The position numbers were made by a program, and so were the translations under genes. 24,000 bases of DNA, taken from positions 25,263 to 49,262 of the forward strand of contig CADCHF010000011.1 in NCBI GenBank assembly GCA_902801175.1. Reading direction: 5' to 3'. How positions within the stretch are numbered: position 1 is the first letter of the stretch; the number at the start of each line of letters is the position of its first letter. The notes below the pieces were generated by a model. That model was given only the letters and a program-made list of their open reading frames with translations. It had not been told where the DNA came from and did no database searches. The DNA is from an uncultured Coriobacteriaceae bacterium (GTDB lineage: Bacteria > Actinomycetota > Coriobacteriia > Coriobacteriales > Atopobiaceae). Below, piece after piece: positions 8,879-24,000 of the stretch.

Positions 8879-9020
8879 CTATCAAGAGACGTTTGCGGGC
8901 TTTCCGTCATGGCGCTCGTCGCAGAACGTGCATTGTGCTTCTTCTCTTCTCGCTCGTGCGGCAACGCAGGCGCGCGGTATCATTAGTGCAACTAGTGACA
9001 CAGAGCACGCGGAGGCGCAC

Positions 9021-10535
9021 ATGAGCGAGTTCATGGACATCATCACTGCTAGCAACCTCACCTACGGCCAAAAGCTCATCCATCTGGCACAGGCCGCCGA
9101 GAACTGCGAGCACCCTATTCCCACCACGCCTGAGTTTGACTGGTTCTTTGAGCGTGACGCCATCTGCGACATGCACGAGGGCAACGCGCCCTACCGTCCG
9201 CGCTACATCTGCTGCGACATGGAGCGCTTTGCTCGCCAGGGTAGCGAGTTTTTGCGTCTTGACGCACCGGACAACCTCGATGACCTGCTCATGAACCTGC
9301 AGATCCTCTACCAAAACGTGCCATCCGTCACCGGGCGCCCGGTGTACGTGGGCCAGCTCGACCGTCTGTTTGACCCCTTCCTGGACGGTCTCTCGGACGA
9401 AGAGATCCTCCCGCGTTTCAAGCGTTTCCTCAACTACATTGACCGCACGGTGGCCAGCGGCTACTGCCATGCCAACCTTGGCCCCGAGGACACGCGCGCC
9501 GGCCGTCTGCTGCTGCAGGCAGACGCCGAGGTCCAGAACGCCGTCCCCAACTTTACGCTCAAGTACGAGGAGGGCATCACCCCCGACGACTTCGCGCGCC
9601 TTGCGCTCAAGACGTCCATGGCCTGCGCCAACCCCGCCTATGCCAACCACCGCATGCACAAGCACACCTACGCTGCCCCCGTTGACGGCCCGGCAGACGG
9701 CTACACGGTTGTCTCCTGCTACAACGTGCTGCCCATCCGCGGCGGCGCCTACTGCCTTGACCGCGTGAAGCTCTCGCAGCTGGCCGACCTTGCCACCTCG
9801 CCGGAGCACCTGCTCAACGAACTGCTCCCCAGCGCCACGGGCGCCCTGCTCGAGTACATGGACGCGCGCATCAAGTTCTTGGTCGAGGACTCCAACTTCT
9901 TCCAGACCTCGTTCCTGGCGCGCGAGGGCCTCATTGAGCGCGAGCGCTTTGTGGGCATGTTTGGCATGATCGGCATGCACGAGTGCATCGAGAAGCTGCT
10001 TGGTCCTGGGCACGTGTATGGCACCGACCCCGAGGCCAACGACCTTGCCGACCAGATCATGACCAAGATGACCGCGCAGGTGCAGGCCTGGAACGCTCCC
10101 TACTCCGAGATTGGCAACGGCCGCTACCTCATGCACGCACAGGCCGGCTTTGGCGACCAGACCTCTTCCACGCCCGGCGTGCGCATTCGCGTGGGCGACG
10201 AGCCCGAGGTCTTCTTTGACCATCTGCGCCACTGCGCTCGCATGCACCGCTTCTTTAAGGCGGGCGTGTCCGACATCTTCCCGGTGGAGCCCACGGCCGC
10301 GCAGAACGTGGACGCCCTGCTCGATGTTGTTAAGGGCGCCTTTGCCATTGACGACACCTACCTCTCGTTCTATCCCTCCGACTCCGACCTGGTTCGCATC
10401 ACGGGCTTCCTCGTGAAGCGTTCCGAAATGGAGAAGTTTGCCCGCGGCGAGGCCGTTCTTGCAGACACCAGCCACGACGGCGAGGGCAACTGGCGCGCCA
10501 ACAACCTGGCCGACCGCAAGGTCCGTCTGGGGTAA
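9021..10535 (+). CDS. yjjI: YjjI-family glycine radical enzyme (DUF3029), function unknown
   Basis: ORF 8928..10535, trimmed to ATG 9021 (GGAGG at 9011-9015). The 504-aa protein starts MSEFMDIITASNLTYGQKLIHLAQ. A C-terminal glycyl-radical fingerprint, DLVRITGFLVKR, has its Gly codon at 10404-10406 (residue 462). A dedicated activase gene follows immediately. Overall length and the N-terminal sequence match my recollection of E. coli YjjI. Confidence 0.88.
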   Translation: MSEFMDIITASNLTYGQKLIHLAQAAENCEHPIPTTPEFDWFFERDAICDMHEGNAPYRPRYICCDMERFARQGSEFLRLDAPDNLDDLLMNLQILYQNVPSVTGRPVYVGQLDRLFDPFLDGLSDEEILPRFKRFLNYIDRTVASGYCHANLGPEDTRAGRLLLQADAEVQNAVPNFTLKYEEGITPDDFARLALKTSMACANPAYANHRMHKHTYAAPVDGPADGYTVVSCYNVLPIRGGAYCLDRVKLSQLADLATSPEHLLNELLPSATGALLEYMDARIKFLVEDSNFFQTSFLAREGLIERERFVGMFGMIGMHECIEKLLGPGHVYGTDPEANDLADQIMTKMTAQVQAWNAPYSEIGNGRYLMHAQAGFGDQTSSTPGVRIRVGDEPEVFFDHLRHCARMHRFFKAGVSDIFPVEPTAAQNVDALLDVVKGAFAIDDTYLSFYPSDSDLVRITGFLVKRSEMEKFARGEAVLADTSHDGEGNWRANNLADRKVRLG

Positions 10536-11749: not shown

Positions 11750-12745
11750 TTACCCGCAGATGATGGTGCGTAGGCGTGCCTTGGCTGGCTCATCGGCAAA
11801 GCTCGCGTCCACCGCGTTTTGCAGCAGCTGCGTGACCTCGGCATCTCCTAGGCCAAGCTCGCTTGCCAGCAGCATGAGCTCCTGGCTAACCCAGGTGTTG
11901 GACACGGAGTTGTTGTCCGAGCACACAACCACCTTGCAGCCAGCCTTGAGCAGCGTGTCCACAGCACGCACGCCAACCTGGTCAAGTGCTCCGGTTTGCA
12001 GCTCAGAGGTGTAGCACACCTCAATGGGCACCTGTCGCTCGGCAAGCTCACGAACGAGGCCGGGATCCTCAACGGCCCTCACGCCATGGCCAATGCGGCT
12101 CGCGCCCATGGCAAGCGCGTCGCGCACGCTCTTCGGTCCGTCGGCCTCTCCGGCATGTATGGTAAACGGCACGCCAAGCTCACGGGCCCGCTCAAAGAGC
12201 GGAGCGAAGTCCGCCGTGGGAAAGAGCGCCTCGGCACCCGCAAGGTCTGCCGCCACTATCTCGTTGCCCAGATACTCGGCCGAAAGCTCTATCGTCTCGA
12301 GATTGGCCTCAAAGTTGTCTGCGCCGCGCATGCAGCACAGGATCAGCCGGGCCTCAAAGCTCGACCGCCTGAGGCCCCTGAGCGCAGCCTCGACCACCTC
12401 GCGCTGCGTAAGGCCCCGCTCGCGCAGCGACTGCGGAGCAAAGCGCAGCTCGGCGTACGCATAGCCGCGCTGCAGCAGCTCCTCTTGCAAGAGATAGATG
12501 TGCTCCTCGACCTGCTCGCGCGTTTGGATGAGCGAGAGCGGGAACACAAACTTGTCCAGGTACTCGTTAAGGTCCTCGCAGCTGTCCCCCACCGACAGGC
12601 GGTCAAAGACCTCCGCGTCGCTCACATCGAGCGGAATGCCGCCCAGCTCGGCCAGACGTCGGGCGGCAGGAACGCTGATGGAGCCATCGCTGTGAAGGTG
12701 CAGGTCAACAAGGCGCCCGCGTAGGCGCTCAAGACTTACCGTCAT
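11750..12745 (-). CDS. add: Adenosine deaminase
   Basis: A 331-aa ORF. It has the N-terminal metal-binding VDLHLHSDGS motif (HxH), FTIHAGEADGP (the HAGE motif) and VVCSDNNSVSNT (the C-terminal Asp motif of the Gram-positive Add type). Its ATG is 3 nt after the deoC stop. Confidence 0.85.
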   Translation of the reverse strand: MTVSLERLRGRLVDLHLHSDGSISVPAARRLAELGGIPLDVSDAEVFDRLSVGDSCEDLNEYLDKFVFPLSLIQTREQVEEHIYLLQEELLQRGYAYAELRFAPQSLRERGLTQREVVEAALRGLRRSSFEARLILCCMRGADNFEANLETIELSAEYLGNEIVAADLAGAEALFPTADFAPLFERARELGVPFTIHAGEADGPKSVRDALAMGASRIGHGVRAVEDPGLVRELAERQVPIEVCYTSELQTGALDQVGVRAVDTLLKAGCKVVVCSDNNSVSNTWVSQELMLLASELGLGDAEVTQLLQNAVDASFADEPAKARLRTIICG

Positions 12746-12748
12746 GCC

Positions 12749-13390
12749 CTACCCCTCGATGATGGCGATGCTGGCACTCGTGCCCAGCCTGTCGGCGCCT
12801 GCGGCAACCATGGCCTCGGCCTCGGCACGGGCGTGCATGCCACCTGCGGCCTTGACCTTGCAGCGGTCGCCCACGGTCTGGCGCATGAGCTCCACATCGT
12901 GCACCGTGGCACCACCGGTCGAGAATCCCGTGCTCGTCTTGACAAAGTCCGCCCCAGCGGCAACGGAGCACTCGCACGCGCGCACGATCTCTTCGTCGGT
13001 AAGCAGGCAGCACTCCAAAATGACCTTCACCTTTGCGTCACCCGCAGCTTCGACCACTGCAGCAATGTCGCGCGTGCAGAACTCGTCATCGCCATCCTTA
13101 AGGCGCCCCACGTTGATGACCATGTCAATCTCGGTGGCACCGTCGGCCACAGCCTGAGCCGTCTCGGCAGCCTTGGCCAGCGTGGAGCAGGCCCCCAGGG
13201 GGAAGCCCACCACGGTGGTCACGCCCACGCCCCAGCCGGCCACAAGGGCTGCCGCGAGTGAGGTCCAACTGGAGTTAACGCACACGGTGGCAAACCTGTG
13301 CTCGCGGGCCTCGTCGCAGAGGCGCTCGATGTCTGCACGACGTGCATCCTGCTTGAGGTTGGTGTGGTCGATGATGGCGCTCAGCTGCAT
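12749..13390 (-). CDS. deoC: Deoxyribose-phosphate aldolase
   Basis: ORF 12749..13585, trimmed to ATG 13390 (AAGGAGAAACC upstream). The 213-aa protein reads [16 protein letters not shown]...ATVCVN...VVGFPLGA...IDMVINVG...VKVILE...[10 protein letters not shown] (Schiff-base Lys)...KVKAAGG. This is the classic class I DeoC pattern. Confidence 0.92.
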
Positions 13391-13535
13391 GGTTTCTCCT
13401 TTGAATGTTAGAAAAGCTATTGGCAAAGAGTATACCGCCCGCCACGTACAGAAAACCACCGGCATGCCTTGGACGGACCGAGGCCCCAACCAATAGAATG
13501 GCTGGTGAATCCAAGCGGACCCAAGGAGCACAGCC

Positions 13536-14315
13536 ATGAGGCAGTACGTTGTTGACGCATTCACCGACCAGGTCTTTAGCGGCAATCAGGCCGCCGTATG
13601 CGTGATGGAAGCCTGGCCAAACGAGCGCCTCATGATGGCCATCGCACGCGAGAACAACTTCTCAGAGACAGCCTTTACCGTGCGCGAACCCGACGGCAGC
13701 TATCGCCTTAGGTGGTTTACCCCCACGAGCGAGGTGGACCTCTGCGGTCATGCGACGCTCGCCACCTCGTATGTGCTGTTCAACTTCTATGAGCAAGATG
13801 CCAGCACGATCTGCTTCCACACCACCTCGAGCGGCGACCTCTTTATTGGCAGGCGCGGCGACCTCATACAGATGGACTTCCCCGCCTATAAGCTGCACGA
13901 GGTGCCCGTGACCAGCGCCATGGAAGAGGCGACTGGCGCGAGGCCAAGCGCCGCCTACCTCGACCGCGACCTGCTGCTTGTGTACGACAGCGAGGGCATC
14001 GTGCGAAACATGCACCCAAGCCCCGAGAGCATCGAGCAGCTTGCGGGCATGGGCGTGGCCGTAACGGCACCCGGTACCTCGCATGACTGCGTGTCTCGCT
14101 TCTTTGTCCCCAAGATCGGCGTTGCCGAGGACCCCGTCACCGGGTCGGTGCACTGCATGATCGGCCCCTATTGGGGAGGGCGCCTTAGCAAGTCGTCCAT
14201 CAGCGCCTACCAGGCGTCCGAGCGTGGCGGGGAGATGCTGCTCGAACTCAAGGGGGACCGTGTGCTCATCCTAGGCAAGGCCGCGCTCTTCTCAAAGGCC
14301 GAGCTCAACCTGTAG
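13536..14315 (+). CDS. PhzF family isomerase (phenazine biosynthesis-like protein)
   Basis: A 259-aa ORF with an AAGGAG RBS. The protein reads [23 protein letters not shown]...[13 protein letters not shown]...[19 protein letters not shown]...[16 protein letters not shown]. These are diagnostic PhzF/YddE family blocks. Confidence 0.85.
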
Positions 14316-16160: not shown

Positions 16161-16410
16161 GGCTATACCTCCCGCTTGCGCGAAACATCTCTGTAATAAT
16201 CGACTTTAATGTTACTACTTTGTTTCGACGCGTCAATACAAAAGGCAGGGGATTTTTGCCTTTGACCAACTGGCCAAGAGAAGTGCATTGCGGGCAGCTT
16301 TGCAGGTATCGCCAATATCATCTCCTGGCACACGGACTGCAGACGCGGTTGGTTTTGCCTGCCACGCCCGTGCTACCATGCCAGTGTTACGACATACGAA
16401 AGGACCTGCC

Positions 16411-17619
16411 ATGCGTTTTGACTTCACCACCATCCCGGACCGCCATGGCCACGACGCCATTGCAATTGATGGCTTGGGTGACGGCACTGGCTTTGCACCA
16501 GCCGGGCCCAAGGAAGGCTTTGACTCGATCCCACTGTGGGTTGCCGACATGAGCTTTGCCACGGCACCCTCGGTCACGCGCGCCATGCACGAGCGCATCG
16601 ACCACCCCTTCTTTGGCTACTACGCCGAAACCGACACCTATTACCAGGCCATCATCGACTGGCACGCCAACCGCAAGGGCGTCACCGACATCACGCGCGA
16701 CTGCATTGGCTACGAGAACGGCGTACTCGGAGGCGTTGTGAGCGCACTCGACGTGCTCTGCTCCCGCGGCGACAACGTGCTCGTTCACTCCCCCACCTAC
16801 GTGGGATTTACCGGCTGCTGCGAGAACAACGGCTATCACCTGGTTCATAGCCCACTCGTGCTCGACGAGGCCGGCGTGTGGCGCATGGACTTTGAAGACA
16901 TGGAGCGGCGCATTGTAGACAACAAGATCCACTGCGCCATCTTCTGCTCGCCGCACAACCCCTGCGGTCGCGTGTGGGAGCGCTGGGAGCTTGAGAAGGC
17001 CATGGCGCTCTTTGAGAAGCACGACGTGTGGGTCATCTCCGACGAGATCTGGAGCGACATCCTGCTCAACGGCAACACCCACACCCCCACGCAGCAGGTG
17101 AGCGAGTGGGCACACGAGCACACCGTTGCCCTTTACGCACCGTCCAAGACCTTCAACCTGGCCGGCCTTATTGGCTCCTACCACGTTATCTACAACCCGT
17201 GGCTGCGCGACCGCGTGCGCAAGCAGAGCTCGCTTGGCCACTACAACAGCCAGAACGTCGTGAGCATGCATGCGCTGGTTGGCGCGTACAGCGAGGAGGG
17301 CGCCGCCTGGACCAACGAGCTCTGCCAGGTGCTGTCCGCAAACGTTAACTACGCGCACGAGAAGCTGGCGTCCTACGAAGGCGTGACGTGCGCCCATCCA
17401 GAGGGCACCTATGTGCTGCTTGCCGACTGTCGCGAGTGGTGTGACGCCCACGGCGTGAGCTACGCGGACTTCCCGCGCCTGGGCTGGGATGTGGGCGTGA
17501 CCTGGCACGACGGGCGCCTGTTTGAGTGCCCGGGCTTTGTGCGCATTGCCGTGAGCGTGCCGCACTCGCAGGTAGTAGAGGCCTTTGACCGGCTGGACCG
17601 CCACGTGTTTGGTGCGTAG
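16411..17619 (+). CDS. MalY/PatB-family PLP-dependent C-S lyase (cystathionine beta-lyase-type aminotransferase class I/II)
   Basis: ORF 16288..17619, trimmed to ATG 16411. The protein starts MRFDFTTIPDRHGHDAIAI. It also contains WVADMSF, FGYY, HSPTYVGF, CSPHNPCGRVW, DEIWSD and the PLP-lysine block YAPSKTFNLAGL. Confidence 0.85.
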   Translation: MRFDFTTIPDRHGHDAIAIDGLGDGTGFAPAGPKEGFDSIPLWVADMSFATAPSVTRAMHERIDHPFFGYYAETDTYYQAIIDWHANRKGVTDITRDCIGYENGVLGGVVSALDVLCSRGDNVLVHSPTYVGFTGCCENNGYHLVHSPLVLDEAGVWRMDFEDMERRIVDNKIHCAIFCSPHNPCGRVWERWELEKAMALFEKHDVWVISDEIWSDILLNGNTHTPTQQVSEWAHEHTVALYAPSKTFNLAGLIGSYHVIYNPWLRDRVRKQSSLGHYNSQNVVSMHALVGAYSEEGAAWTNELCQVLSANVNYAHEKLASYEGVTCAHPEGTYVLLADCREWCDAHGVSYADFPRLGWDVGVTWHDGRLFECPGFVRIAVSVPHSQVVEAFDRLDRHVFGA

Positions 17620-17695: not shown

Positions 17696-17793
17696 GCGGA
17701 AAGACGTGCTGGCGCTGGTCCAACGGCGGCATCCCATTTCTTGTCAGACGTTTTGCCGCAGGGCCGGCATAGGTGGAGCCCGGCGACCCTCCC

Positions 17794-18852
17794 CTACTTA
17801 CGGATGTCTCCCCTGTCCACAGAGATCTCGTAACCAATGAGATTCATGCGCAGGCCCAGGCAACCCTTGCACTGCGCGGACTCCTCGCCGGTGCAAATCT
17901 TGTTGTCGTAGAGCTCGTACTGCTTGCGAACGGCAACGGGAGACAGGTTGGGCATCACCACGTTGGCACCCGCGAGCATCCCCTTCTCGCGACCGCGCGG
18001 GTCAATGGTTCCGAGGGCCGTCGTTGCCGGCAGCAGAACGTTGGGATAGATGAGCCTTATCAGACTCAGCAGGTAAAGGGTCATGTCGAGCGTGCCGGCC
18101 GGCTCATCGCGAAACGGCGTGTCGTGGTGCGGGATAAAGGGGCCAATGCCGCACATGTCGGGCTTGAAGTCCTCCACAAAGCGCAGCTCCTGCACCAGGT
18201 GCTCCATCGTTTGGAAGGGCGAGCCGACCATGAAGCCCGCGCCAACCTGAAAGCCCACCTCACGCAGGTCGCGCAGGCACTGCATGCGATGTTCCCAGCT
18301 CATGGTTGCAGGATGCAGCCGGGCGTAGTGCTCGGGATTGGCCGTCTCGTGGCGCAGCAGGTAGCGCGATGCGCCCGCGTCAAACAGGTGCTGGTAGCTC
18401 TCGCGGTTCCGCTCTCCCATCGAGAGGGTGACGGCCGTGTCGGGGCAGCTCTCACAGATGCGGCGCACCACGTCCCCTAGCACCTCGTCGGCGTAGTACG
18501 CGTCCTCGCCGCCCTGAAGCACAATGGTGCGAAATCCCAGCTCCCAGCCCTCGCGCGCACAGTCGACAATGGTGTCGGGCTCTAGGCGATAGCGCTCCAC
18601 GTTGGTGTTTGAGCGCCTAATGCCGCAGTACAGGCAATCGTTTTTGCAGATGTTGGAAATCTCGATGAGCCCACGCACAAAGACCTTCTTGCCATAGATG
18701 GGCTCTCGGGCCTCCACCGCTTTCTCTGCCAGCAGCTCCGCCAGCTCGGGCGAGCGGTTTGCAAGCAGCGCGCGGTAACCCTCGTCATCAAGGTGATGCT
18801 CACTGGCAAGCTGGTCGACCAGCGCCACCAGCTCGGCAGATGGTTGGCTCAT
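17794..18852 (-). CDS. hydE: [FeFe]-hydrogenase H-cluster radical SAM maturase HydE
   Basis: A 352-aa ORF. IEISNICKNDCLYCGIRRSN carries the CxxxCxxC motif. Other blocks are IVLQGGED, YLLRHETANP, GAGFMVG, CGIGPFIPHHDTP, LPATTALGTI, GANVVMPN and YELYDNKIC. They match block by block the Thermotoga maritima HydE sequence as I recall it, and the length is right. Confidence 0.9.
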   Translation of the reverse strand: MSQPSAELVALVDQLASEHHLDDEGYRALLANRSPELAELLAEKAVEAREPIYGKKVFVRGLIEISNICKNDCLYCGIRRSNTNVERYRLEPDTIVDCAREGWELGFRTIVLQGGEDAYYADEVLGDVVRRICESCPDTAVTLSMGERNRESYQHLFDAGASRYLLRHETANPEHYARLHPATMSWEHRMQCLRDLREVGFQVGAGFMVGSPFQTMEHLVQELRFVEDFKPDMCGIGPFIPHHDTPFRDEPAGTLDMTLYLLSLIRLIYPNVLLPATTALGTIDPRGREKGMLAGANVVMPNLSPVAVRKQYELYDNKICTGEESAQCKGCLGLRMNLIGYEISVDRGDIRK

Positions 18853-18856
18853 GGCA

Positions 18857-18896
18857 GGTTCCTCTCGGTCGGATGAGAATCCTCTCAGTCGGATGT
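18857..18896. repeat. Tandem 20-nt direct repeat covering the hydE Shine-Dalgarno region
   Basis: On the + strand, CCTCTCGGTCGGATG (18861-18875) and CCTCTCAGTCGGATG (18881-18895) are 14/15 identical with a 20-nt period. On the minus strand this reads CATCCGACTGAGAGGATTCT CATCCGACCGAGAGGAACCT GCC ATG, so the GAGAGG SD is duplicated. Confidence 0.6.
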
Positions 18897-18919
18897 TCCA
18901 TCAATATACGAAACGCTCG

Positions 18920-18940
18920 GCAAATGCAAGCCGCATTTGC
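18920..18940. promoter_or_regulatory. Perfect palindrome GCAAATGC-N5-GCATTTGC in the hydE / nifH-like divergent control region (candidate operator)
   Basis: Read directly at 18920-18927 and 18933-18940, near the centre of the 211-bp divergent intergenic region. Function is inferred from position only. Confidence 0.3.
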
Positions 18941-19063
18941 GTTGTACAGATGGCGAAGCCTTCTAGAAGAAGAGACGGCTATAGGCTTTTGCTATGATGG
19001 CCCTGTACACTCACGATCTGACCGCGAGGACCTGTCCAAGCAGGAAGACACGAGGTTTTTACC

Positions 19064-19843
19064 ATGCTCAAGATTGCTCTTTATGGCAAGGGCGGCATCG
19101 GCAAGTCCACGATGACCAGCAACCTTGCCGCCGCATTTGCCACGTTGGGTAAGCGCGTCATCCAGATTGGCTGCGACCCCAAGGCCGACTCCACCATCAA
19201 CCTGCTCGGCGGGCAGCCGCTTGAGCCCGTCATGACCTACCTGCGGCTCCATGACGACGACCCCAGCTCGATCGACGAGATTGCGCGCGAGGGCTTTGGC
19301 GGAGTCCTTTGCATTGAGACCGGTGGACCCACCCCGGGCCTTGGCTGCGCCGGCCGTGGCATCATTGCCACCTTTAACCTGCTCGAGGACCTGCGCCTCT
19401 TTGAGACCTACCAGCCCGACGTGGTCCTCTACGACGTGTTGGGCGATGTGGTGTGCGGAGGCTTTGCCGCCCCCATTCGCGAGGGCTATGCCGAAAAGGT
19501 GCTCATCGTCACCTCTGGCGAGAAGATGGCCCTCTATGCGGCAAACAACATCAGCACCGCCGTGCACAACTTTGAGGACCGCGGCTACGCCAAGGTCGCC
19601 GGCATCATCCTCAACCATCGCAACGTGCCCGACGAGACCGCCAAGGTCCAGGCCTTTGCCGACGAGCACGACCTTGCCATTGTGGCCGAGATTCCTCGCT
19701 CCGACGATATCAACCGCTGCGAGGACCAGGGCATGACGGTTGTGGAAGCCGACCCGACCCTTCCCGTGAGCCGTCGCTTTATTGAGCTGGCCGAGCAGCT
19801 GCTCGCCAATGCCGAGGCCGACCACACACCCGAGCAGGAGTAA
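19064..19843 (+). CDS. NifH/BchL-family nitrogenase-iron-protein-like ATPase ([4Fe-4S] dimer type)
   Basis: A 259-aa ORF. The Walker A is [10 protein letters not shown] and switch I is GCDPKADST. Both cluster-ligand cysteines sit in canonical context: [15 protein letters not shown] (C95) and [17 protein letters not shown] (C131). These compare with NifH ESGGPEPGVGCAGRGVI and [17 protein letters not shown]. It also has [13 protein letters not shown]. Confidence 0.9.
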
Positions 19844-19845
19844 CC

Positions 19846-22242
19846 ATGCAACAAGCCGCCCGCTTCTACACGGCGGCCGAGCTCGCACGTCGAGGGGTCG
19901 ATGACCTTCCCGACGAGCTGGTTTCGTCCCGCCACCTTATCTATAGCTCGCCCGCAACACTGGCATACAACTCACCGGGTGCCGAGGGCTTTGGCGTAAA
20001 GCGCGCAGGCCTGGCCATTCCCGGCTCGGTCATGCTCGTTGTGGCCCCTGGCTGCTGTGGGCGCAACACCTCGCTCATTAGCGAGATGCCCGCCTATCAC
20101 GACCGCTTCTTCTACCTCACGATGGACGAGACCGACATTGTGACCGGACGCCACCTGCGCAAGATTCCCCAGGCGGTCGAGGAGGTCGTGGCGCGCCTCG
20201 AGACGGCACCGAGCGTGGTGATGATCTGCATCACCTGCGTCGACGCCCTTTTGGGCACCGACATGGAGCGCGTGTGCCGCCGTGCCGAGGAGCGCGCAGG
20301 CGTGCCCGTGCGGCCCTGCTACATGTACGCCCTCACGCGCGAGGGCCGCAGGCCGCCCATGGTGCACGTGCGCCAGAGCCTCTACTCGCTGCTCAAGCCG
20401 CGTCGCAAGCGTGCGACCTCGGTGAACATCATGGGCAGCTTTGCCCCGTACGCCAGCGACTGCGAGCTTTACCGCTACCTTGCCGGCATTGGCGTGCGCA
20501 CGGTGCGCGAGGTGTCCCGCTGCGCCAGCCTCGCGGAGTTTGAGGACATGGCCGAGGCAAACTTCAACCTGGTGCTGCATCCCGAGGCGCGCTTTGCAGC
20601 GGCCGACCTGCAGGAGCGTCTGCAGATTCCCTCGATTGAGCTCACCCGTCTCTATCAGCTCGACCGGATTCGTCGCCAGTACCAGGCCCTAGGCCAGGTG
20701 CTTGGGGCAAGCTTTGACGACGAGGCGGACTATGCCGCTGCCGAGGGGGCTATCGAGGCCTTCCGCGCGGCCCAGCCAGACGCAAGCTTTGCCGTGGGCG
20801 AGTGCCTTAACGCCGACCCCTTTGAGCTTGCACTGGCCCTTGTGCGCTACGGATTTGCCGTGCGCGAGGTGTTTGGCACCATCTCGGCCGAGAACTTTGT
20901 CTTTGTGCGGCACCTGGCCGAGCTTGCGCCCGAGGTTCGCGTGTACTCCAACATGGAGCCCACGATGATTCACTATGACGCCGCCGAATGCCCGGTAAGC
21001 GTTGCCCTGGGCAAGGACGCCGGCTGGTATCACCCCGAGGCCGTGTGCCTGCCGTGGAACTCCGACGTGCAGCCCTTTGGCTATGCGGGAGTACGGGCGC
21101 TCTTTGAGTCGCTGCGCGAGGCTTGCGCCGAGGATGCTGGCAAGGGCGCGGAAAGCCCCGCGCCTGCCAGCCCAGCCGACAACCTGCGCCCGCTCGACCT
21201 CGCCAAGCCGCTCCCTCGCGGCCTGCGCACCTATCTCACGCCCTTTGCGCCAGACCAGTCGGGTGCCGTGTCGGTGCTCTACGAGCTGGGTGGACTCACC
21301 GTCATCTGCGACGCAGGCGGCTGCACCGGCAACGTCTGCGGCTTTGACGAGCCGCGCTGGCACAACGAGCGCTCGGCTGTGTTTAGCGCGGGCCTGCGTG
21401 ACATGGACGCCATCATGGGTCGCGACGACAAGCTCGTGGCCGAGCTCGCCGACGCAGCCACCAAGATTGATGCCCGTTTTGCGGCCGTAGTGGGCACGCC
21501 CGTCCCGGCTGTCATTGGCACCGACTACCGGGCACTGCGCCGAATGGCAGAGCGCGCCTGCGACCTTCCGGTGGTCACGGTAGACTCCTCGGGCACGCGC
21601 CTTTACGACGACGGCGCCCGCAAGGCCTACCTCGCCCTCTTTGAGCGCTTTGCCACCGAGGAGCTGCCAGTTGTGCCCGGCCGCGTAGGTGTGATTGGCG
21701 CCAACCCGCTCGACATCGACGCGCTCGACTCGCACGAGATCTGCGAGGCCATCCCCGGTGCCGTCTGCTATGGCATGGGCGCGGGCCTCGACGACATCGC
21801 CGCAGCCTCGAGCGCCGAGCGCAACGTGGTCGTTGCCCCCTCGGGCCTTGCCGCGGCACAGCTGCTGCAGAAGCGCTTTGGCACTCCGTACGAGGTGCTC
21901 GACCCACGCGCCACGCGCATGGCGGTCCAGATGGACGTTGCGGGCAAGCGCGTGCTCATCGTCCACCAGCAGGTCACGGCAAACTCACTGCGCGAGGAGC
22001 TCCTCGCAAAGGGCGCGCTTGAGGTCAACTGCGCCACCTGGTTCATGCAGGACCGCTCCCTTGCAAAGCCGCAGGACGTCCACCTTGCCGAGGAGGCCGA
22101 CTTTGCCCGTCTTGTGGCCGAGGGCTCCTTTGACGTGATCGTGGGCGACCCCGTCCTGTGGCGCATCATTGGCAACTGGGACGGCACCACCTATGACCTG
22201 CCACAGTTTGCGGTCTCGGGAAAGCTCGGTGGAAACTCATGA
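19846..22242 (+). CDS. Single-chain fusion of two nitrogenase component-1-type (NifD/E/BchN-like plus NifK/N/BchB-like) oxidoreductase domains
   Basis: A 798-aa ORF starting 2 nt after the nifH-like stop, with AGGAG 5 nt upstream. The N-terminal half has VVAPGCCGRN (C70/C71) and VMICITCVDALLGTD (C128/C131), the xxTCxxxxIGxD block of the family. A Pro/Ala-rich linker EDAGKGAESPAPASPADNLRPLDLAKP lies at about nt 21118-21226. The C-terminal half has VICDAGGCTGNVCG (C488/C493/C498) and AAVVGTPVPAVIGTD. Confidence 0.82.
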   Translation: MQQAARFYTAAELARRGVDDLPDELVSSRHLIYSSPATLAYNSPGAEGFGVKRAGLAIPGSVMLVVAPGCCGRNTSLISEMPAYHDRFFYLTMDETDIVTGRHLRKIPQAVEEVVARLETAPSVVMICITCVDALLGTDMERVCRRAEERAGVPVRPCYMYALTREGRRPPMVHVRQSLYSLLKPRRKRATSVNIMGSFAPYASDCELYRYLAGIGVRTVREVSRCASLAEFEDMAEANFNLVLHPEARFAAADLQERLQIPSIELTRLYQLDRIRRQYQALGQVLGASFDDEADYAAAEGAIEAFRAAQPDASFAVGECLNADPFELALALVRYGFAVREVFGTISAENFVFVRHLAELAPEVRVYSNMEPTMIHYDAAECPVSVALGKDAGWYHPEAVCLPWNSDVQPFGYAGVRALFESLREACAEDAGKGAESPAPASPADNLRPLDLAKPLPRGLRTYLTPFAPDQSGAVSVLYELGGLTVICDAGGCTGNVCGFDEPRWHNERSAVFSAGLRDMDAIMGRDDKLVAELADAATKIDARFAAVVGTPVPAVIGTDYRALRRMAERACDLPVVTVDSSGTRLYDDGARKAYLALFERFATEELPVVPGRVGVIGANPLDIDALDSHEICEAIPGAVCYGMGAGLDDIAAASSAERNVVVAPSGLAAAQLLQKRFGTPYEVLDPRATRMAVQMDVAGKRVLIVHQQVTANSLREELLAKGALEVNCATWFMQDRSLAKPQDVHLAEEADFARLVAEGSFDVIVGDPVLWRIIGNWDGTTYDLPQFAVSGKLGGNS

Positions 22243-24000
22243 GCACCGTCACCCGTCGCATCCGCATGTACGGCATTGTGCAGGGCGTGGGCTTTCGCCC
22301 AACGGTAGACCGCCACGCAACGGCGACCGGCATTGCGGGCACCGTGTGCAACAAGGGTCCCTACGTTGAGATCTTTGCCCAGGGCACGCAGGAGCAGATT
22401 GACCGCTTTGTGGAGCTCATGCACACCCGTCCGCCCAAGCGCGCGACCATCGTGCGGATGGACGTCAAGCCAGTGGACGACGCACCGCAATACGAGGGCT
22501 TTTCCATCGTGGAGAGCGAGCGCACCCGCGGCGAGATCTTCATCTCGCCCGACCTCGCCATCTGCGACGACTGCCAACGCGAGCTCTTTGACCCCACCGA
22601 CCGTCGCTACCTGCACCCCTTCATCAACTGCACCAACTGCGGGCCGCGCATGACCATCCTCAACGCGCTGCCCTACGATCGCGTGCGCACGAGCATGCGG
22701 GTCTTTCCCATGTGCCCCACCTGCGCCGAGGAGTATCACAACCCGGCGAGCCGCAGGTACGATGCCCAGCCGGTCTGTTGCAACGACTGTGGGCCCGAGG
22801 TCTACCTGCTCGACAGGCCCGAGCGTGGGCGTGCGGCCATCTCTGAGGCGCGACGCATCCTGAGCGAGGGTGGCACCGTGGCCGTAAAGGGCATTGGCGG
22901 CTTCCACCTGGCCTGCGACGCCACCAACCCTGCGGCGGTGGAGCTGCTGCGCGAGCGCAAGCGCCGCTCGGCCAAGCCCTTTGCCATCATGGCGCGCGAC
23001 CTTGCCACCGCCGAGCGCGAGTGCGAGGTCTCTCCCGCAGCGAGGGAGCTGCTCTGCGGCCACCAAAAGCCCATCCTGCTGTTGCCAAAGCGCGAAGACG
23101 GGATATGCTGCGAGGCCGTGGCCCCGCACAACCCAAAGCTGGGTGTCATGCTCCCCTACGCGCCGTTGCAGCTGTTGCTCTTTAACTATGACGACGGCAT
23201 TGACATGCCCGACTGCCTGGTGATGACCAGCGCAAACGAGAGCGGAGCCCCCATCTGTCGCGACGACGATGACGCCCGCGGCGAGCTTGGGCCTCTTTGC
23301 GACGCCATCCTCTCCCACGACCGCGTCATCCGCATGCGTGCCGACGACACCGTGCTCGACCTCTTTGAGGAGCGTCCCTACATGGTGCGCCGCTCCCGCG
23401 GATGGGCACCGCTGCCCTTTGTGATCTCGGGCGGGCTTGGTGCGCGCGTGCTGGCCGTGGGAGGCGAGCTCAAGAACAGCTTTTGCCTGGGCTCGGGCGA
23501 TCTCATCTACCCCTCGCCCTACGTGGGCGACCTCTCGGACGTGCGCACCGTGCACGCCTGCGAGGACGCCATTGGGCTCTTCTCGACCCTCTTGGAGTTT
23601 GAGCCCGAGGTCGTTGCCTGCGACCTGCACCCGCGCTACAACGCCACACTCGTGGCCGAGGAGATTGCAGAGGAAAAGGGCCTGCCCGTTGTGCGCGTGC
23701 AGCACCACTATGCCCACGTGGCCGCCTGCATGGCCGAGAACGACGTGGAAGGCCCTGTCATTGGCATCTCGTTTGACGGGACGGGCTACGGCACCGACGG
23801 CACCATCTGGGGCGGCGAGGTGCTGCTCTCAAGCTACCACGGCTTTGAGCGCGTGGGTCACATTGCCCCGTTTGCGCAGGTGGGAGGCGACCTTTCGGCT
23901 CGCGAGGGCTGGCGGTGCGCCATGGCGCTCCTGCGCGACTGCAGCGAGAGCGACGACGAGGCAGCCAGTCGCGCGGAGGCTCTGGGACTTTGCACCGCTG
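22239..24000 (+). CDS. hypF: HypF carbamoyltransferase, N-terminal ~587 aa; the gene continues past the window end
   Basis: Absent from the ORF track because it has no stop in the window. ATG 22239 overlaps the upstream TGA as ATGA. The acylphosphatase domain is RIRMYGIVQGVGFRPTV. The two zinc-finger pairs are CDDCQREL...CTNCGPR and CPTCAEEY...CNDCGPE. The YrdC-like block is VAVKGIGGFHLACDA and the Kae1-like block is VQHHYAHVAACMAEN...GISFDGTGYGTDGTIWGGE. Confidence 0.92.
   Translation, partial: MSTVTRRIRMYGIVQGVGFRPTVDRHATATGIAGTVCNKGPYVEIFAQGTQEQIDRFVELMHTRPPKRATIVRMDVKPVDDAPQYEGFSIVESERTRGEIFISPDLAICDDCQRELFDPTDRRYLHPFINCTNCGPRMTILNALPYDRVRTSMRVFPMCPTCAEEYHNPASRRYDAQPVCCNDCGPEVYLLDRPERGRAAISEARRILSEGGTVAVKGIGGFHLACDATNPAAVELLRERKRRSAKPFAIMARDLATAERECEVSPAARELLCGHQKPILLLPKREDGICCEAVAPHNPKLGVMLPYAPLQLLLFNYDDGIDMPDCLVMTSANESGAPICRDDDDARGELGPLCDAILSHDRVIRMRADDTVLDLFEERPYMVRRSRGWAPLPFVISGGLGARVLAVGGELKNSFCLGSGDLIYPSPYVGDLSDVRTVHACEDAIGLFSTLLEFEPEVVACDLHPRYNATLVAEEIAEEKGLPVVRVQHHYAHVAACMAENDVEGPVIGISFDGTGYGTDGTIWGGEVLLSSYHGFERVGHIAPFAQVGGDLSAREGWRCAMALLRDCSESDDEAASRAEALGLCTA

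Follow-up and report, generated by a model that had tools for sequence, protein, structure and literature searches.

A 24,000-nucleotide stretch of DNA from an uncultured member of the Atopobiaceae (G000:C11:25263-49262, hereafter the window) ends in a NifH-like gene (nflH), a gene for a fused NifD/K-like protein (nflD1K1) and hypF. We find that these genes belong to a conserved module, 9 to 12 genes long, of which the window contains the 5′ part and in which nitrogenase-like proteins are encoded together with HypF, HypC, HypD and HypE. Because of its synteny, its intact motifs, the lack of a [NiFe]-hydrogenase client, the lack of HydG and a distribution complementary to that of hydG, this module probably replaces HydG in the maturation of [FeFe]-hydrogenases.

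Tyrosine is the substrate from which HydG produces CO and CN, and HydE and HydF receive from it an Fe(CO)2(CN)(Cys) unit. In [NiFe]-hydrogenase maturation, the starting compound is carbamoyl phosphate, which HypF and HypE convert to a cysteinyl thiocyanate, and the unit assembled by HypCD is Fe(CN)2(CO). Reduction of CO2 to CO has been reported for nitrogenase Fe proteins and NifEN-type scaffolds, which act as low-potential reductases driven by ATP.

Nitrogenase-like and hyp genes form one conserved module

The source genome (G000) is 3.16 Mb in size and 98.1% complete, and the sequencing runs that contain the window sequence are mostly bovine gut metagenomes. The genes nflH, nflD1K1 and hypF are translationally coupled. 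Only the two nucleotides 'cc' separate the TAA stop codon of nflH (19841-19843) from the fusion-gene ATG at 19846. At the next junction, the TGA of the fusion gene overlaps the hypF ATG within an ATGA at 22239-22242. This packing is as read in the initial annotation, which was made from the sequence alone. The suspicion that further members follow past the window end also proved correct, with hypC, hypD, hypE, nflD2 and nflK2 found there (Table 1). Overlooked at that stage was hydE, which lies directly upstream of nflH and is transcribed divergently from it across a 211-bp intergenic region. The G000 module therefore comprises hydE (divergent), nflH, nflD1K1, hypF, hypC, hypD, hypE, nflD2 and nflK2, and is followed by a convergent ion-channel gene.

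Scanning one genome per species yielded 61 loci that encode relatives of the fusion protein, from the Atopobiaceae (Actinomycetota) and from the Lachnospiraceae, Oscillospiraceae and Eubacteriaceae (Bacillota). Carrier genera include Dorea and Agathobacter (Lachnospiraceae) and Pseudoramibacter (Eubacteriaceae). The order nflH-D1-K1-hypF-hypC-hypD-hypE is kept in every one of the 61 loci that has enough flank, and no orthologue of the nitrogenase-like pair lacking hyp linkage was found in the sufficiently long loci among them. The linkage to hypF first seen in the window is thus not coincidental, recurring as it does in two phyla. D2 and K2 directly follow hypE in most loci and are placed elsewhere in a few genomes.

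The only genes conserved around the cluster are hyd and hyp genes. In most Firmicutes loci, a TM1266-like gene and a second nflH (H2) stand between hypE and nflD2, and hydF-hydE follow nflK2. In 40 loci, the TM1266-like gene (PF21699, 'iron-only hydrogenase system regulator') lies within or next to the cluster, for the most part between hypE and nflH2. We detected hydF in 27 loci, either 3′ of K2 or, in some Atopobiaceae, divergent upstream of nflH; in Pseudoramibacter alactolyticus, hydE comes after hydF. The flanking of the cluster by hydE and/or hydF is therefore seen in other genomes as well as in G000.

The module and hydG are mutually exclusive in the genomes sampled

G000 has the expected parts of an [FeFe]-hydrogenase system other than HydG. 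HydE is accompanied by HydF (534 bits) and by four Fe_hyd_lg_C matches, with H-cluster motifs including ExMxCxxGCxxG in the HydA candidates; one of the four proteins carries TSCCPAW and EGMACPGGCVAG, and another carries MPCTAKKFE and EIMGCPGGCVNG. For HydG, the best profile match in G000 is hydE itself at 54 bits, and tblastn searches of G000 with true HydG sequences of relatives likewise recovered only hydE. The other cluster genomes carry hydF, and hydE too in those inspected, and the HydG cut-off is reached in none of the 36. Applied to cluster-free relatives, these searches identified HydG at 800-960 bits in 127 genomes.

Eight cluster genomes contain ThiH/HydG-like matches of 170-208 bits that either lack the C-terminal domain or are interrupted by stop codons. 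A HydG/ThiH-like frame of about 200 bits with 4-5 stops occurs in three Dorea-type cluster genomes (G006:C45:101484-102713, G005:C13:16276-17457 and G035:C12:10202-11329; loci L091, L094 and L093, respectively). This interrupted frame may be a decayed hydG or thiH.

We tabulated the module and HydG in three families, and HydF in two of them, the Atopobiaceae and the Lachnospiraceae. Among 121 Atopobiaceae genomes, 36 encode HydF; 21 of these have the cluster, 12 have HydG, none has both and 3 have neither. Among the 12 HydG calls, two represent C-terminal fragments located beside hydF at contig ends. The 85 HydF-negative Atopobiaceae genomes contain neither the cluster nor a full-length HydG. 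In the Lachnospiraceae (151 genomes), the 85 HydF-positive genomes divide into 13 with the cluster, 71 with HydG, 0 with both and 1 with neither. One further member of this family (G282) has HydG and no detectable hydF, bringing the HydG total to 72, and two weaker nitrogenase-like matches (32% identity) in HydF-negative Lachnospiraceae belong to other H-D-K clusters. Counted over all 53 Eubacteriaceae genomes, 6 have the cluster, 43 HydG, 0 both and 4 neither. In the two families tabulated for HydF, the module is thus confined to hydF-bearing genomes, and in none of the three family samples does it ever coincide with hydG. Together, the samples contain 40 genomes with the cluster, all lacking HydG, and 127 with HydG, all lacking the cluster.

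These counts are not independent of one another, because related genomes share states. On the HydF tree, the state switches between HydG and cluster at least seven times, and both states are found inside a single genus (g8). HydFs from cluster genomes and from HydG genomes are interleaved on this tree, and a separate clade of HydFs co-diverging with the cluster is not seen. Because cluster-type and HydG-type HydFs are often sisters, one and the same type of HydF appears to accept either supplier. The two suppliers also occupy similar genomic positions in the Atopobiaceae, with hydG abutting hydF in all 10 HydG-positive genomes; in cluster genomes, the cluster usually shares a contig with hydF and is 2-10 kb away from it.

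The Hyp proteins are intact and mostly lack a [NiFe] client

The complete 791-amino-acid (aa) HypF has acylphosphatase, two zf-HYPF, YrdC and Kae1-like domains, all recovered by profile searches as the initial annotation had supposed, and the fragment within the window alone scores well above the TIGR00143 cut-off of 466 bits. Catalytic motifs of the other Hyp proteins are canonical, namely the N-terminal MC (Cys2) of HypC, CGTHTHE, GPGCPVC and the C-terminal cysteines of HypD, and the C-terminal PRIC of HypE. In two Lachnospiraceae (G013:C30:34309-35409 and G015:C37:19691-20779), the cluster hypD matches its Pfam profile in two pieces within one frame of 400-450 aa, which implies that about 20-30 aa are inserted close to position 92 of the profile.

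The usual client of these proteins is missing from most of the genomes. Neither PF00374 nor PF00346 detected a [NiFe] large subunit in G000, and tblastn with the subunit of a relative found none there. A large subunit is likewise missing from 27 of the 36 other cluster genomes, one of them the complete P. alactolyticus DSM 3980 genome (G028). A full [NiFe] maturation system, HypABCDEF with a large subunit as its client, is therefore not what the module represents. A large-subunit match (about 360 aa, group-4-like) is present in the remaining nine, and these are exactly the nine genomes with a second hypD, which lies together with hypA on the large-subunit contig. The nitrogenase-linked hyp set is thus an addition to a separate hyp set in the [NiFe] genomes. 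The lack of a large subunit in most genomes, and the presence of its own second hypD in the rest, lead us to reject the reading that the module hyp genes serve a [NiFe]-hydrogenase. The initial annotation had regarded the adjacency of hypF and the nitrogenase-like genes as coincidental should a hypCDE plus [NiFe]-hydrogenase operon follow directly and orthologues of the pair elsewhere lack hypF. The hypCDE genes do lie directly downstream, but neither a [NiFe]-hydrogenase nor hyp-unlinked orthologues were found.

The linkage could still be incidental if hypFCDE matured a divergent [NiFe]-hydrogenase that our searches failed to detect, or if a divergent HydG had been missed. The searches included a first-look filter, most of the genomes are metagenome-assembled, and the eight genomes with 170-208-bit ThiH/HydG-like matches would fit such an oversight. 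However, the same searches recovered HydG in the 127 relatives and large subunits in nine cluster genomes, independent tblastn searches concur, and the complete P. alactolyticus genome gives the same picture. Genomes with a large subunit also have their own second hypD beside it, and the sub-threshold HydG-like matches are either interrupted by stop codons or devoid of the C-terminal cluster domain. We therefore regard an incidental linkage as very improbable.

Two further [NiFe] maturation genes are retained in G000 without a large subunit, hypA (G000:C31:26042-26377, minus strand) and a fragment of hypB at a contig edge (G000:C46:4-390, minus strand). This hypA lies just downstream of a gene for a 1007-aa Fer4/pyridine-nucleotide oxidoreductase. 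Across the 36 cluster genomes, hypA is present in 23, but the complete genome of P. alactolyticus lacks it.

The nitrogenase-like proteins belong to no characterised clade tested

NflH is predicted to be an ATPase of the Fer4_NifH family, having the P-loop (Walker A, GKGGIGKS), switch I (DPKADS), switch II and the two [4Fe-4S]-ligand cysteines per subunit, Cys95 and Cys131, which are invariant in 60 orthologues. These are the features from which it was initially annotated as a NifH-like electron donor, and the profile searches proposed at that time support the assignment, as they do for both Oxidored_nitro copies of the fusion protein and for HypF (TIGR00143). NflH falls below all equivalog cut-offs of its family (bits obtained/cut-off: NifH 304/394, CfbC 298/402, BchL 212/345 and BchX 203/331). 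In the H tree, H1 forms its own group with weak support (90/54), the H2 group is well supported (96/99) and NifH stands apart (97/95).

In one Lachnospiraceae group, H2 and D2 are covalently fused in a 728-aa protein (L030:17590-19776; also in L027-L033, L038, L042 and L069), with H2 at residues 1-254, a linker of about 20 aa and D2 at residues 277-727. We know of no described NifH-NifD-type fusion.

The D1K1 fusion protein consists of a D half (residues 1 to about 430, about 430 aa) and a K half (about 455-798, 344 aa), with a linker modelled at low confidence (432-449) between them. The description of a single-chain NifD/K-like protein holds for the window and not universally, as D1 and K1 are fused in 31 of 56 loci and are separate genes in 25. 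An AlphaFold2 model of the fusion (predicted local distance difference test score 83, predicted template modelling score 0.82) finds its best Foldseek match in 9i0g_A, a naturally fused NifEN from Geobacter metallireducens, with E = 1.3e-26 across about 900 columns. Chains of NifEN, NifDK, VnfDK, BchNB and Mar (methylthio-alkane reductase) follow, with identities of 11-19% and E values of about 1e-12 to 1e-14. These fold matches, to NifEN, NifDK, VnfDK and BchNB, support membership of the component-1 superfamily. In agreement, Oxidored_nitro (PF00148) matches twice in the fusion and once in K2, and D2 is assigned through hhalign and through its orthologue in locus L062. The two pairs are paralogous, with hhalign E values of 1e-37 for D2 against the D1 half and 2e-58 for K2 against the K1 half.

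Sequence similarity to characterised proteins is remote. Matches of the D/K proteins to solved Protein Data Bank chains reach E = 1e-11 at best, with NifE at 6e-11 and Mar (9fmg) at 4e-4, and the scores remain below the cut-offs of all characterised clades tried, the best being NifE (107/505 bits), with CfbD at 40/268 and BchN at 24/420. The curated cut-offs tried, all of them missed, were those of NifH, CfbC, BchL/X, NifD/E/K/N, BchN/B/Y and CfbD. In the D/K tree, a quick version with Shimodaira-Hasegawa-like approximate likelihood ratio support only, D1, D2, K1 and K2 are each monophyletic (97-100) on long branches from NifD/E/K/N and Bch. The D groups and hyp-less H-D-K clusters form one clade apart from NifD/E and Bch, and the K groups form a matching clade apart from NifK/N; the references here are Nif, NifEN, Bch and hyp-less nitrogenase-like sequences from plasmid records and sampled genomes. 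The pair thus lies outside the characterised clades tested, being off Nif, NifEN and Bch in the tree and far below the CfbC and CfbD cut-offs.

Cysteines at family-typical positions, noted in both halves at the outset, are found at C71 and C131 in the D half and C493 in the K half. C131 aligns with the cysteine of the NifE motif 'tCvpaLIGDD', a cluster-ligand position in NifE and NifD. The invariant cysteines of the fusion protein are C70, C71, C128, C131, C226 and C493/C498, and C488 is nearly invariant. Those with equivalents in the second pair are C71 (C57 in D2), C131 (C120 in D2), C226 (C214 in D2) and C493 (C65 in K2), and C70, C128, C144, C158, C488 and C498 are extra cysteines specific to D1K1. 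D2 in turn has its own invariant histidines and a C-terminal PRKGxGCxSC tail.

We did not find nifB in G000, so a NifB-derived L-cluster on the scaffold is unlikely. Together with the failure to reach any Nif cut-off, this rules out nitrogen fixation, as the initial annotation had already argued. A complex prediction for HypC with the D1K1 fusion scored 0.00; having been run without controls, it weighs neither way.

On the trees, Atopobiaceae H1 sequences are interleaved with Firmicutes copies (70-88% H1 identity, L012-L072), and Atopobiaceae D1 and K1 nest inside Firmicutes diversity. These placements suggest that the whole module has moved horizontally between phyla in the rumen and gut.

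The clade that D1/D2 and K1/K2 share with hyp-less clusters (Treponema saccharophilum pTS1 and the Lachnospiraceae G239 and G161), which presumably have another function, raises the possibility that the module encodes an ordinary Group-IV-type small-molecule reductase. The Hyp proteins would then moonlight, for example by cyanating or carbamoylating a substrate or residue, in line with the second option of the initial annotation. Apart from CfbCD, every characterised Group IV member is indeed a reductase (PMC13474568). However, we found no conserved substrate-related genes around the cluster, only hyd and hyp genes. The conservation of HypC and HypD, an iron carrier and a scaffold, along with HypE and HypF suggests that the product is bound to iron and is not a cyanated organic molecule, and exclusivity with hydG would go unexplained. 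A reductase of this kind seems to us distinctly improbable.

A different alternative is that the module builds another Fe-CN/CO cofactor, possibly with nickel, that stays in one of the nitrogenase-like pairs and makes it a new hydrogenase or reductase, the loss of hydG being indirect. The two D/K pairs, like NifEN and NifDK, suggest a scaffold and an end-user, the set of invariant motifs in D2 and its C-terminal GCxSC tail are without known counterpart, and hypA and hypB persist without a [NiFe] large subunit. Such a cofactor would not explain how HydA, HydE and HydF are used without HydG, why exclusivity with hydG is strict over at least seven switches, or why hydE, hydF and a TM1266-like gene lie in or beside the cluster, and the complete P. 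alactolyticus genome has no hypA. We consider this alternative unlikely.

A proposed HydG-independent route to the [2Fe] subcluster

On balance, we lean towards the module being a third organometallic assembly line, in which nitrogenase-type ATP-driven scaffolds and HypFCDE provide a HydG-independent route to the [2Fe] subcluster, with CO perhaps derived from CO2. HypF and HypE would convert carbamoyl phosphate to a cysteinyl thiocyanate, and HypC and HypD would load cyanide (and CO) onto iron. The iron unit would then be handed to the NifEN-like scaffolds D1K1 and D2K2 and not to a hydrogenase large subunit. The NifH-like ATPase would feed low-potential electrons to D1K1 and D2K2, perhaps for making CO by reduction of CO2 or for reducing or pairing the iron centres; this is the most speculative step. 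Finally, the product would join the normal HydE/HydF line, which finishes the [2Fe] subcluster for HydA. The evidence thus points to a new assembly route for a CN/CO-bearing cofactor, as first suggested from the window, although the cofactor itself is probably not an uncharacterised one.

Several observations weigh against this proposal. The case for a HydG substitute is one of comparative genomics, and many of the surveyed genomes are metagenome-assembled. The stoichiometries do not match, as HypCD make Fe(CN)2(CO) and HydG makes Fe(CO)2(CN)(Cys), so that extra CO or ligand remodelling must be assumed. The tree omits CfbCD, Mar, Isr (isethionate reductase), Nfa and Group VI. In G000, the TM1266-like gene and hydF are paired on contig C31 and not on the cluster contig. 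Persistence of hypA and hypB without a large subunit could point to a nickel-containing product. Four HydF-positive genomes (G046, G112, G129 and G164) have neither HydG nor the cluster; these may reflect assembly gaps, or neither system may be obligatory. Because the HydFs of G046 and G129 sit beside cluster-type HydFs on the tree, assembly gaps are likely.

Expression and neighbouring genes

Contigs of one RNA library span 25 of 30 bins of the region 17700-24000 at 95-99% identity, and two bovine metatranscriptomes contain four short contigs that match without mismatch in nflH, the start of nflD1K1 and hypF. Because DNA carry-over is possible and operon structure is invisible to contigs, these matches are a weak hint of module expression and no more. 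A promoter and terminator scan gave nothing exceeding chance.

Elsewhere in the window, a gene for a PatB-family C-S lyase-like pyridoxal-phosphate enzyme (16288-17619, plus strand; 284 bits, below the 340-bit cut-off) is convergent with hydE. A YjjI-family glycine radical enzyme gene (8928-10535, plus strand; TIGR04040, 578 bits) has adenosine deaminase (11750-12745, minus strand) and deoxyribose-phosphate aldolase (12749-13585, minus strand) genes near it, and all three are apparently unrelated to the module.

Table 1. Genes of the G000 module and the hyp-less clusters. Positions with two dots are those of the window; C11 positions refer to the contig and lie outside the window; L095, L101 and L102 are separate loci.
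Feature	Position	Strand	Description
hydE	17794..18852	-	TIGR03956 HydE, 552 bits (cut-off 254.6); radical S-adenosylmethionine H-cluster maturase
nflH (H1)	19064..19843	+	259 aa; NifH-like P-loop ATPase, predicted [4Fe-4S] electron donor; Fer4_NifH 9e-88
nflD1K1	19846..22242	+	798 aa; single-chain NifD/E-like + NifK/N-like; Oxidored_nitro x2, 7e-53
hypF	22239..24000 (cut by window end)	+	full gene 791 aa, ending at G000:C11:49876; TIGR00143 604 bits
hypC	C11:49903-50115		Pfam call
hypD	C11:50112-51164		Pfam call
hypE	C11:51125-52168		Pfam call
nflD2	C11:52208-53524		438 aa; no Pfam match; paralogue of the D1 half by hhalign
nflK2	about C11:53530-54639		Oxidored_nitro; paralogue of the K1 half by hhalign
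hyp-less cluster (T. saccharophilum pTS1)	L095:14001-20297		compact nifH-like/D/K
hyp-less cluster	L101:3165-6383		compact nifH-like/D/K
hyp-less cluster	L102:3235-6460		compact nifH-like/D/K

Novelty and significance

We found no paper that links nitrogenase-like proteins with Hyp or Hyd maturases, in a search that left subscription-only literature outside its reach. Neither Hyp proteins nor hydrogenase maturation is mentioned in a 2026 survey of nitrogenase-like systems in Chemical Reviews, which counts Group VI and several clades of Group IV among the uncharacterised ones (PMC13474568). A 2022 survey of Clostridium acetogen genomes could not identify hydG in several species and recorded hypCDEF without hypAB, and does not explain them in such a way (PMC9431212). 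As a pathway, the system therefore appears new within the non-subscription literature; it is assembled from known families, and we infer its function.

If the proposed function is correct, the implications reach beyond these organisms. To our knowledge, [FeFe]-hydrogenase maturation has been taken to need exactly HydE, HydF and HydG, and tyrosine to be the sole source of CO and CN; a natural HydG-free route would overturn this dogma. The cofactor-assembly systems of nitrogenase, [NiFe]-hydrogenase and [FeFe]-hydrogenase, which have been regarded as separate, would become linked. A function would also be given to an uncharacterised nitrogenase-like clade and to hyp genes in [NiFe]-free organisms. 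The hosts, among them Dorea, Agathobacter, Atopobiaceae and Pseudoramibacter, are abundant H2-producing fermenters of the rumen and gut, and the pathway would therefore bear on the hydrogen and methane economy of the gut. It may also supply new parts for engineered hydrogenase production. Cultured carriers are P. alactolyticus DSM 3980, P. faecis HA2172, Dorea amylophila H5_25, Sarcina sp. DSM 11001 and Lachnospiraceae bacterium MA2020.

Comparison with known systems

The closest functional counterpart of the module would be HydG. Both would supply a CO/CN-ligated iron block to HydE and HydF, and both occupy the same genomic niche, with hydG abutting hydF in relatives and the cluster lying near hydF or hydE instead. 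In contrast to HydG, the module is built from unrelated protein families, its predicted source of cyanide is carbamoyl phosphate via HypF and HypE and not tyrosine, and it employs ATP-driven nitrogenase-like parts and at least eight genes where HydG is one.

The hyp genes of the module belong to the same families as the HypCDEF of [NiFe]-hydrogenase maturation and share their catalytic motifs, in the order hypF-C-D-E. Unlike those genes, they are embedded among nitrogenase-like genes, are inconsistently accompanied by hypA and hypB, and mostly occur without a large subunit.

D1K1 resembles the NifH/NifEN system in pairing an ATPase partner with a D/K-type scaffold and has fused NifEN (9i0g) as its best structural match, and the two paralogous D/K pairs of the cluster recall NifEN and NifDK. 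It differs from NifEN in sequence (about 15% identity, far from the NifE equivalog cut-off) and in the lack of nifB. C226 of D1 and C214 of D2 align near the cofactor site, 22 residues before the position of the NifE cofactor cysteine.

The module belongs to the same superfamily as CfbCD, the dark-operative protochlorophyllide and chlorophyllide oxidoreductases (DPOR/COR), Mar, isethionate reductase and Nfa, and like them combines an H-type ATPase with a D/K-type partner. No link to hyp or hyd genes is recorded for any of these systems in the 2026 review (PMC13474568). The module is set apart from them by the wide margins by which it misses the CfbC, CfbD, BchL and BchN equivalog cut-offs.

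The nearest relatives found are the hyp-less H-D-K clusters of T. saccharophilum pTS1, where the cluster adjoins an iron ATP-binding cassette (ABC) transporter, and of the two Lachnospiraceae. Their H proteins are 55-58% identical to that of the module and their D/K proteins about 28-32% identical, falling in the same clade as D1/D2 and K1/K2. Unlike the module, these clusters have a single D/K pair and no hyp or hyd neighbours.

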